A stretch of DNA of 4,882 bases, from IMG/VR virus record IMGVR_UViG_2617270978_000018; one strand, 5' to 3'. The stretch is from a virus (lineage: Duplodnaviria > Heunggongvirae > Uroviricota > Caudoviricetes). Numbering within the stretch: the stretch's first letter is position 1; every line of letters starts with the position of its first letter. The notes beneath the pieces are model-generated. The model was given only the letters and a program-made list of their open reading frames with translations, did not search any database and was not told the origin of the DNA. The position numbers and the translations under genes were made by a program. This document shows positions 411 to 1,553 of this stretch, piece by piece.

Positions 411-1553
411 CTAAATCAGTAAGTTGGCAGCATCACCCGATATCGAACCAAATAAGAAAGAGCCAACCGCATATTTTTCTGTGGATACATTACCATTCCT
501 GCCTGCTGCCCCCTGCGGCCCTGCCGGACCACGAGGGCCTGCCGGGCCGGTTTTCCCCTGCGGCCCCGCGGGACCCACTGCACCAGGTGCGCCAGGTTCC
601 CCCCTGTCCCCCTTCGGTCCGGGGACTGCTGCCCGGGTTGCTGCCTCTTCTGCCTTCGTTTTTGCTGCCTGCACTTCTGCCATTACCGCTTTCACAGCCT
701 TTGGGGTTGCCGCTTTTGTTTCATCATCGCTGTTGGTATCGCTGCTCAGCTGTACAACACCTTTCTGTGATGTGCTGGCATCCGGAACACTGGCGACACT
801 GCCTGCGGGACCCGCAGGACCTGCGGGGCCGGTTTCTCCCCGAGGGCCTGCGGGACCTGCCGGACCTGTTGCGCCGGGTTCACCTTTATCCCCTTTCGGG
901 CCGGTTTGCCCTGCCGGACCCTGTGGTCCGGGTGGTCCGGCCTCTCCACGTGGGCCGGTGTCACCTTTCGGCCCCGGCGGTCCGCCCGGGTCACCTTTAT
1001 CGCCCTTCGGTCCCTGTGGACCTGTTTCTCCCCGTTCTCCCTTTGGCCCCGGCTCACCTTTTGGTCCGACCGCCCCCGTTGCCCCGGCTGGTCCCTGTGC
1101 CCCTGTGGCACCCTGTGGACCTGTGTCCCCCTTCTCGCCCGCCGGTCCCCGGGCATTCTCTGCCCGTTTCTTCGCTTCCTCTGCACTCGCCGCCGACGCT
1201 TCAGCACGCTTCAGGATTTCCGCTGCCACCGCTTCCAGCTCTGCAAGCGCTTTCGGGTAATACTGCGCCTCATCCTGTTCCATCAGAAATTTATTCAGCG
1301 TTCCCGGCTCAGAATCCGCCTTCACCAGAATGTCACCCACATATGACGGGGCGTACCCTTCCGTGTTCAGCGTCACCCGGTACCACCCCGGCTCCACATC
1401 AAAACTGTAACTGCCGGTTTCCCCCGGCTGCCCCTGCGCCACCGTGGTGACTATCACTGTCTCTGTGGTGCGTCGCGCTTTCAGCTCTATGGTGCATCCC
1501 GGCACCGGCTTCCCGGTGCCGTCCTTCAGCACGCCCGATATTCTGACTGTCAT
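411..1553 (-). CDS. stf: Side tail fibre protein (lambda Stf-like) with collagen-like repeats, 3'-truncated by IS1; probable pseudogene fragment. Native codons 438..1553; the last 8 codons plus stop (411..437) come from the IS1 inverted repeat
   Basis: The N-terminus [28 protein letters not shown]...EPGTLNKFL is clearly homologous to the recalled lambda Stf N-terminus ([28 protein letters not shown]...QPGTLNDFL). An internal motif [25 protein letters not shown] matches lambda Stf [25 protein letters not shown] (the phage tail-fibre repeat motif). There are long Gly-X-Y tracts. An RBS GGGAG lies 6 nt upstream of the ATG at 1553. The ORF ends ...[12 protein letters not shown], where GDAANLLI* is the translation of the IS1 repeat GGTGATGCTGCCAACTTACTGATTTAG. 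Confidence 0.85.
415..437 (-). repeat. IS1 left terminal inverted repeat (IRL, ~23 bp)
   Basis: Minus-strand sequence GGTGATGCTGCCAACTTACTGAT at the outermost end of the IS1 homology, matching the recalled IS1 inverted repeat. Confidence 0.9.
492..620 (-). repeat. Collagen-like Gly-X-Y repeat block 2 within stf (aa ~312-354; ~14 triplets)
   Basis: Translation [43 protein letters not shown], immediately upstream of the IS1 junction. Confidence 0.9.
801..1148 (-). repeat. Collagen-like Gly-X-Y repeat block 1 within stf (aa ~136-251; ~38 triplets with a single register break at G190-G191)
   Basis: Direct reading of the translation: [116 protein letters not shown]. The DNA is visibly GC-rich and has a 9-nt periodicity. 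Confidence 0.9.

Follow-up and report, generated by a model that had tools for sequence, protein, structure and literature searches.

The left part of this stretch of prophage DNA places an insertion sequence directly against an open reading frame (ORF) for a collagen-repeat side tail fibre. The question raised by this locus is whether the 380-residue product is a complete fibre protein or the remainder of a longer one that the insertion sequence has cut. The window, by which the whole stretch of 4,882 nucleotides is meant, carries the tail-tip gene J, lom, the stf ORF and the IS1 sequence, all on the minus strand. J is present with its C-terminal 835 codons (2371–4882, minus strand; ORF list and Pfam families on locus L003) and runs off the window; this part is 98.8 % identical to gpJ of E. 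coli NCTC9112. The lom gene for an Ail/Lom outer-membrane protein (1704–2303, minus strand; Pfam PF06316, 1.7e-126) is the upstream neighbour of stf. The chimeric, truncated stf ORF occupies positions 411–1553 of the minus strand (380 aa and a stop; ORF list and Pfam matches to phage_tail_N, Collagen and Phage_fiber_2). It lies directly after J and lom in the late operon, and the order J–lom–stf is the same in NCTC9112, in DETEC-S792 and in prophage P-EibA. The reading preferred here is that a copy of IS1A has very probably transposed into stf, the orf-401 homologue of a P-EibA-type lambdoid prophage, and has cut off the distal tip of the fibre.

Positions 1–437 were identified as IS1A (minus strand). 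Thousands of E. coli records contain copies, annotated as "IS1-like element IS1A family transposase", that are identical to this segment at 437 of 437 positions; such a match lies far above chance. Placed on the fully flanked 768-bp IS1A copy of locus L005, the segment corresponds to bases 332–768 in the plus-strand reading, or, with the left inverted repeat (IRL) as origin, to bases 1–437. A further 331 bases complete the element past the window start, in agreement with the approximately 330 bp that a preliminary description of this DNA had expected there. The IRL appears at 415–437 (about 23 bp; GGTGATGCTGCCAACTTACTGAT on the minus strand) with its outermost base at 437. It matches the canonical IS1 end and, imperfectly, the other end of IS1; the IRR of this copy is outside the window. 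The segment contains insA (91 aa; 107–382, minus strand; Pfam Zn_ribbon_InsA, 1.3e-21, and HTH_Tnp_IS1, 4.7e-31), the A6C motif for the programmed –1 frameshift from insA to insAB' (125–131, minus strand; IS1 position 307) and the start of the insB' frame (3–131, minus strand; Pfam DDE_Tnp_IS1, 3.9e-13, profile positions 1–26), of which the first 43 codons are present before the window start cuts it. The IS1A coding sequence in L005 is annotated with "programmed frameshift". The orientation of insA and insB is the same as that of stf.

The junction between the element and the gene lies at 437/438. Homology to uninterrupted stf starts at exactly base 438 (megablast), and the outermost base of IS1 is 437. 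This position is unambiguous because the intact gene has a T before CGATATCGA, where the window has a C, the terminal base of IS1. On the minus strand the ORF runs across the junction as TTC GGT TCG ATA TCG in stf and then GGT GAT GCT GCC AAC TTA CTG ATT TAG in IS1. The product consists of 372 native residues followed by eight IS1-encoded residues, for a total of 380, and reads FGSIS and then GDAANLLI. The codons for this tail and the TAG stop are located at 414–437 and 411–413, respectively (together 411–437, minus strand; sequence and ORF list). The preliminary description had derived the tail and the stop codon from the IS1 inverted repeat and had predicted a 380-residue product, and the ORF read on the minus strand bears this out. 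It had also called the insertion in-frame at a codon boundary, which is literally true and has no significance. The three frames that enter this end of IS1 stop after 8, 6 and 0 codons, respectively. Every frame is therefore closed within 0–8 codons, the term "in-frame" is meaningless for such an insertion, and the codon-boundary position is a one-in-three coincidence.

The best intact matches to the interrupted gene were found in E. coli NCTC9112 (locus L001) and DETEC-S792 (locus L002), where the gene is 1443 nt long, codes for 480 residues and is annotated as "prophage tail fiber N-terminal domain-containing protein". The intact gene is the orf-401 of prophage P-EibA from E. coli ECOR-9, whose "ORF-401-like protein" has 479 residues (AF151091). 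In the alignment, the 372 native residues are 98 % identical to the intact homologues, and the last 78 of the 480 residues (TLESESAIKEN...LTLFQRIV) are absent from the window protein. The P-EibA protein shares with the window copy the 98 % identity over 372 residues, the PfN-Col-Pf2-Col arrangement and the J–lom–stf context; it differs in having 10 Gly-X-Y triplets and a final 78 residues that are missing from the window copy. P-EibA ORF-401 has been catalogued as EPclC, a collagen-like prophage tail fibre with a C-terminal region unrelated to the PfC of EPclA/B (PMC3368898). The traits of this type are present in the window gene, with two Pfam Collagen matches, Phage_fiber_2 between them and a C-terminal module that has no Pfam match. 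Judged by these alignments, the stf of the window is a disrupted member, a pseudogene, of the orf-401-like family. The distal module is present in 8 of 5,426 complete E. coli genomes, uninterrupted in every case and 100 % identical over 357 nt. It is also uninterrupted in phage GER2, in P-EibA, in one IMG/VR contig and in two metagenome contigs. The proposal in the preliminary description that IS1 had inserted into a lambdoid stf gene is thus upheld by the complete identity to IS1A and by the homologues that run on for 78 residues. When a failure of the segment to align with IS1 and a natural protein end at the junction were looked for, neither was found.

Downstream of intact stf are found orf-191A (DUF4376), the gene for a YadA-like immunoglobulin-binding adhesin (eibA) and the gene for a SPATE autotransporter (eaaA), as observed in loci L001 (167–5750), L010 (2661–9939) and L002 (1–5750). 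Since the uninterrupted relatives share this region, the prophage of the window is assigned to the P-Eib group; the corresponding orf-191A/eibA/eaaA region of P-EibA falls outside the window. In NCTC9112 an ISEc12 additionally separates orf-191A from the gene for the adhesin.

The architecture of the fibre protein was assigned from Pfam matches and from the alignment with the intact homologues. The virion-proximal prophage tail fibre N-terminal domain is encoded at 1152–1553 (minus strand; Pfam PF08400, 6.9e-43, residues 1–134, full profile length). The first collagen (Gly-X-Y) run follows at 801–1148 (minus strand; Pfam PF01391 and alignment), the phage tail fibre repeat (Pf2) lies between the collagen runs at 651–776 (minus strand; Pfam PF03406, 2.4e-16, residues 260–301), and the second collagen run occupies 495–620 (minus strand; alignment). 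A short coiled-coil-like linker is also kept in the 380-residue protein. The last residue of the Gly-X-Y pattern is residue 353 of the window protein, and residues 354–372, encoded at 438–494 (minus strand; alignment with intact homologues), make up the beginning of a non-collagen C-terminal module of 97 residues. This 19-residue stub is retained, and 78 of the 97 residues are absent. The alignment thus places the IS1 cut site 19 residues into the C-terminal module, past the point where the collagen shaft ends. The preliminary description had extended the collagen repeats to position 438, which was incorrect: the Gly-X-Y pattern ends near base 495, and 438–494 belongs to the non-collagen module. 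Its picture of a truncated fragment is accurate for the N-terminal domain and the collagen that are kept and incomplete in that 19 of the 97 residues of the C-terminal module also remain.

In NCTC9112 and P-EibA the second collagen run has 10 more triplets than in the window. The difference is a 90-nt in-frame indel of 10 Gly-X-Y triplets (window 554–575; L001 6117–6229) with a 22-nt direct repeat at its borders, and it looks like the result of repeat-mediated slippage or recombination. In other genomes length variants of a 27-nt type were observed.

The 97-residue module gave no match to a Pfam or NCBIfam family, no sequence relative in the PDB and weak matches to PHROG tail-fibre families. 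Among 1.84 billion representative proteins three matches were obtained: the module itself, a fragment that is 54 % identical and one that is probably spurious. A single-sequence AlphaFold model of the module has a pLDDT of 40 and is unusable. The same C-terminal module, together with the DUF4376 gene and the adhesin gene, is found in GER2 (MG710528.1; L011 5300–9436), a Stx-phage-like member of the Sepvirinae. The module is fused there to a different and longer N-terminal part in a fibre of 668 residues. Because the module, orf-191A and the adhesin gene accompany a different N-terminal part in GER2, they appear to behave as an exchangeable host-range cassette. This arrangement speaks for a mobile distal cassette that would be common to siphovirus-type and podovirus-type prophages. 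The position of the module and its modular exchange suggest that it may be a receptor-binding domain. The DUF4376 gene orf-191A corresponds to PHROG 1141 ("tail fiber protein"), and its product is likely a partner of the fibre. The related EPclA fibres are dumbbell-shaped, and their C-terminal domain, which is globular and serves in trimerisation, forms the distal extremity (PMC3368898).

The proposed course of events is as follows. IS1A would have jumped into stf at a point 19 residues inside the 97-residue non-collagen C-terminal module. Reading of the stf frame would then continue for eight codons into the left inverted repeat and stop. The resulting 380-residue product would keep the N-terminal domain, the linker, both collagen runs and Pf2 and would be made without the 78-residue distal tip. 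The lost tip presumably serves in host recognition and/or C-terminal trimerisation, and the side fibre would be non-functional or tip-less. The loss of 80 % of the C-terminal module would most likely give a fibre that is tip-less, misfolded or unstable, and we infer a loss of fibre function. Infection through J would still be possible with adsorption or host range altered, as the analogy with laboratory lambda suggests. With IS1 in between, stf would no longer adjoin the downstream orf-191A, which may be subject to polarity. Such a sequence of events would represent passive IS-mediated decay of the prophage and not a designed switch.

Lambda without side fibres, as caused by the stf frameshift, is viable; the fibres bind OmpC and speed adsorption (PMC12617516). 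Laboratory lambda (PaPa compared with Ur-lambda) resembles the window in that a lesion in stf should abolish the distal fibre and infection mediated by J is still possible (PMC12617516). The analogy with this frameshift, which the preliminary description had drawn, is reasonable in this respect, but the lesions differ in type and position. In laboratory lambda a 1-bp frameshift falls about half-way along the 774-residue Stf, the gp37-like tip of which binds OmpC, whereas in the window an insertion sequence removes the last 16 % of a 480-residue collagen-type fibre with a tip that is unrelated in sequence. The locus also resembles the mutations that insertion of IS1 (IS1A) causes in genes of E. 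coli. The sequence is that of IS1A, the insertion ends at the exact terminus of the inverted repeat and the interrupted ORF stops a few codons into that repeat; compared with these mutations nothing is unusual, and one end is visible here. The element, the fibre type and the disruption of prophage genes by insertion sequences are all known, the last being commonplace, and the locus offers no new mechanism.

The first 9 bp of target DNA, CGATATCGA at 438–446, constitute the candidate target-site duplication. A duplication of 9 bp is typical of IS1 (PMC10294622), and given this usual length a simple insertion is the default reading. If the insertion was simple, the far side would read ...CTTTCGAGAGTCGATATCGA joined to GGTAATGACTCC..., which is the stf remnant with the duplicated CGATATCGA followed by the right end of IS1. 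The sequence of the right end of IS1A is GGTAATGACTCCAACTTATTG. With a 9-bp duplication of CGATATCGA the junction would be ...GAGAGTCGATATCGA joined to GGTAATGAC..., and the right end of IS1 would be expected after ...CACTTTCGAGAGT plus 8–10 bases. The reference IS1A copy of L005 (E. coli M217, around 356–1145) is flanked by a direct repeat of 8 bp (TAGTTTCC), and the duplication at the stf site may therefore also differ from 9 bp in length.

The other junction was searched for in several collections. An exact right-junction pattern gave no match in the GTDB representative genomes or IMG/VR, and a gapped left-junction pattern gave no match in IMG/VR or the JGI metagenomes. Neither junction was found in 5,426 complete E. 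coli genomes with a synthetic left-junction query and a junction-centred query. A 115-residue C-terminal query for an ORF in the stf remnant returned only contig-end fragments broken in collagen repeats, and the distal-module loci in the viral, metagenome and GTDB collections were all uninterrupted or irrelevant. The contigs that bear the junction all break inside IS1, as is explained by the multi-copy nature of this repeat, which occurs at a median of about 10 places per E. coli genome.

These results bear on the possibility that the junction arose by an IS1-associated deletion or by recombination between two IS1 copies, in which case the 3' end of stf (perhaps with orf-191A and eib) would be absent or located elsewhere and no flanking duplication would exist. 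IS1 causes adjacent deletions, its many copies provide substrates for recombination, and the left junction is absent from the GTDB representatives, IMG/VR, the JGI metagenomes and the complete E. coli genomes. That absence is nevertheless expected under a simple insertion as well, since the source strains are short-read drafts outside the searched DNA collections, and a right junction at the exact terminal base of IS1 fits either model. A deletion or rearrangement is considered unlikely, though it keeps some weight beside the simple insertion.

A different proposal, and one that is given little credence, is that the breakpoint is non-random and marks a recurrent insertion hot spot which knocks out or helps to exchange the host-range tip. 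It is drawn from a palindrome at the start of the exchangeable module and from a partial protein (P0012) that starts at exactly this codon. In the intact genes CGATATCGA is part of the perfect 10-bp palindrome TCGATATCGA (L001 6000–6009). The IS1 junction falls after the first base of this palindrome, of which window positions 438–446 and one lost base are the parts. P0012 is a 79-residue contig-end partial protein ("STLESES...") of the GER2-type allele from eight other draft contigs (e.g., EAA1960946.1 and EEY7929775.1), and its first codon is the codon at which IS1 sits in the window. These eight assemblies may break at an insertion sequence at the same site or at a module boundary; if the eight contigs also break by an insertion sequence, the site would be a recurrent hot spot in this fibre family.

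The same chimeric ORF was detected by exact-protein look-up in draft contigs JMGW01000055.1 and JJLQ01000033.1, for 5 samples in total, and each of these contigs has one mismatch to the window; all contigs returned by this look-up are 2.7–4.8 kb long and end inside IS1. The chimeric C-terminus also appears in GenBank protein EZJ32192.1 from E. coli 1-176-05_S4_C3. Strain 1-176-05_S3_C2, which is a different isolate from S4_C3, is reported as Escherichia ruysiae (PMC10434276). The window and its junction-bearing relatives are contigs of 2.7–4.9 kb that end in IS1 and in J, both of which are repeated sequences, and a short contig end could in principle have been joined wrongly to a collapsed IS1 repeat. 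Such an artefact is very improbable. The same exact-terminus junction recurs in three or more assemblies or records that were deposited separately, a chimeric join is not expected precisely at the last base of the inverted repeat, and the coincidence of the two argues strongly against an assembly chimera.

The occurrence of the allele in several isolates, together with the retention of the trimer-forming parts (linker, collagen and Pf2), could also be taken to mean that the truncated fibre with its GDAANLLI tail has been selected, for example for a change of host range or to prevent adsorption to debris of the phage's own host. This is considered very improbable. The isolates look like sibling colonies or members of a single lineage, in which the allele could persist without selection, and the GDAANLLI tail arises by chance from the sequence at the end of IS1. 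Any effect of its largely non-polar C-terminus would rather be to favour proteolysis. A natural short allele, in which the native fibre ends at about this point and IS1 merely lies downstream, was rejected as next to impossible, because every uninterrupted copy runs 78 codons further at 100 % DNA identity and the stop codon used in the window is within IS1, and no supporting evidence was found for it, including any intact relative ending at ...GSIS.

With insertion of IS1A into stf as the preferred reading, the label "collagen triple helix repeat family protein" for the 380-residue ORF ought to give way to that of a disrupted side tail fibre gene (pseudogene). GenBank already contains the allele, under a collagen-repeat annotation only. 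The end of the contig is best read as a collapse of the IS1 repeat, and work on host range with this prophage or fibre should take into account that the tip is absent. The significance beyond annotation is small. The P-EibA prophage group carries the immunoglobulin-binding Eib adhesins, and it may be speculated that an IS1 just upstream of the Eib region could bear on the inducibility and spread of those genes.

Two signals for transcription were observed near the two ends of the stf ORF. A single sigma-70-like promoter match within positions 1–1800, CTGCCA-16-TATGAT, appears at 403–430 on the minus strand, inside the left inverted repeat of IS1 and overlapping the codons of the chimeric tail; it is consistent with the insA promoter of IS1 itself. 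A strong hairpin that resembles an intrinsic terminator (13 pairs, 7 of them G-C, followed by a T-run) is located at 1561–1600 on the minus strand, between the lom stop codon and the stf ribosome-binding site and just some 10 nt upstream of the region where stf starts. With this hairpin ahead of the gene, expression of stf would need read-through or antitermination.
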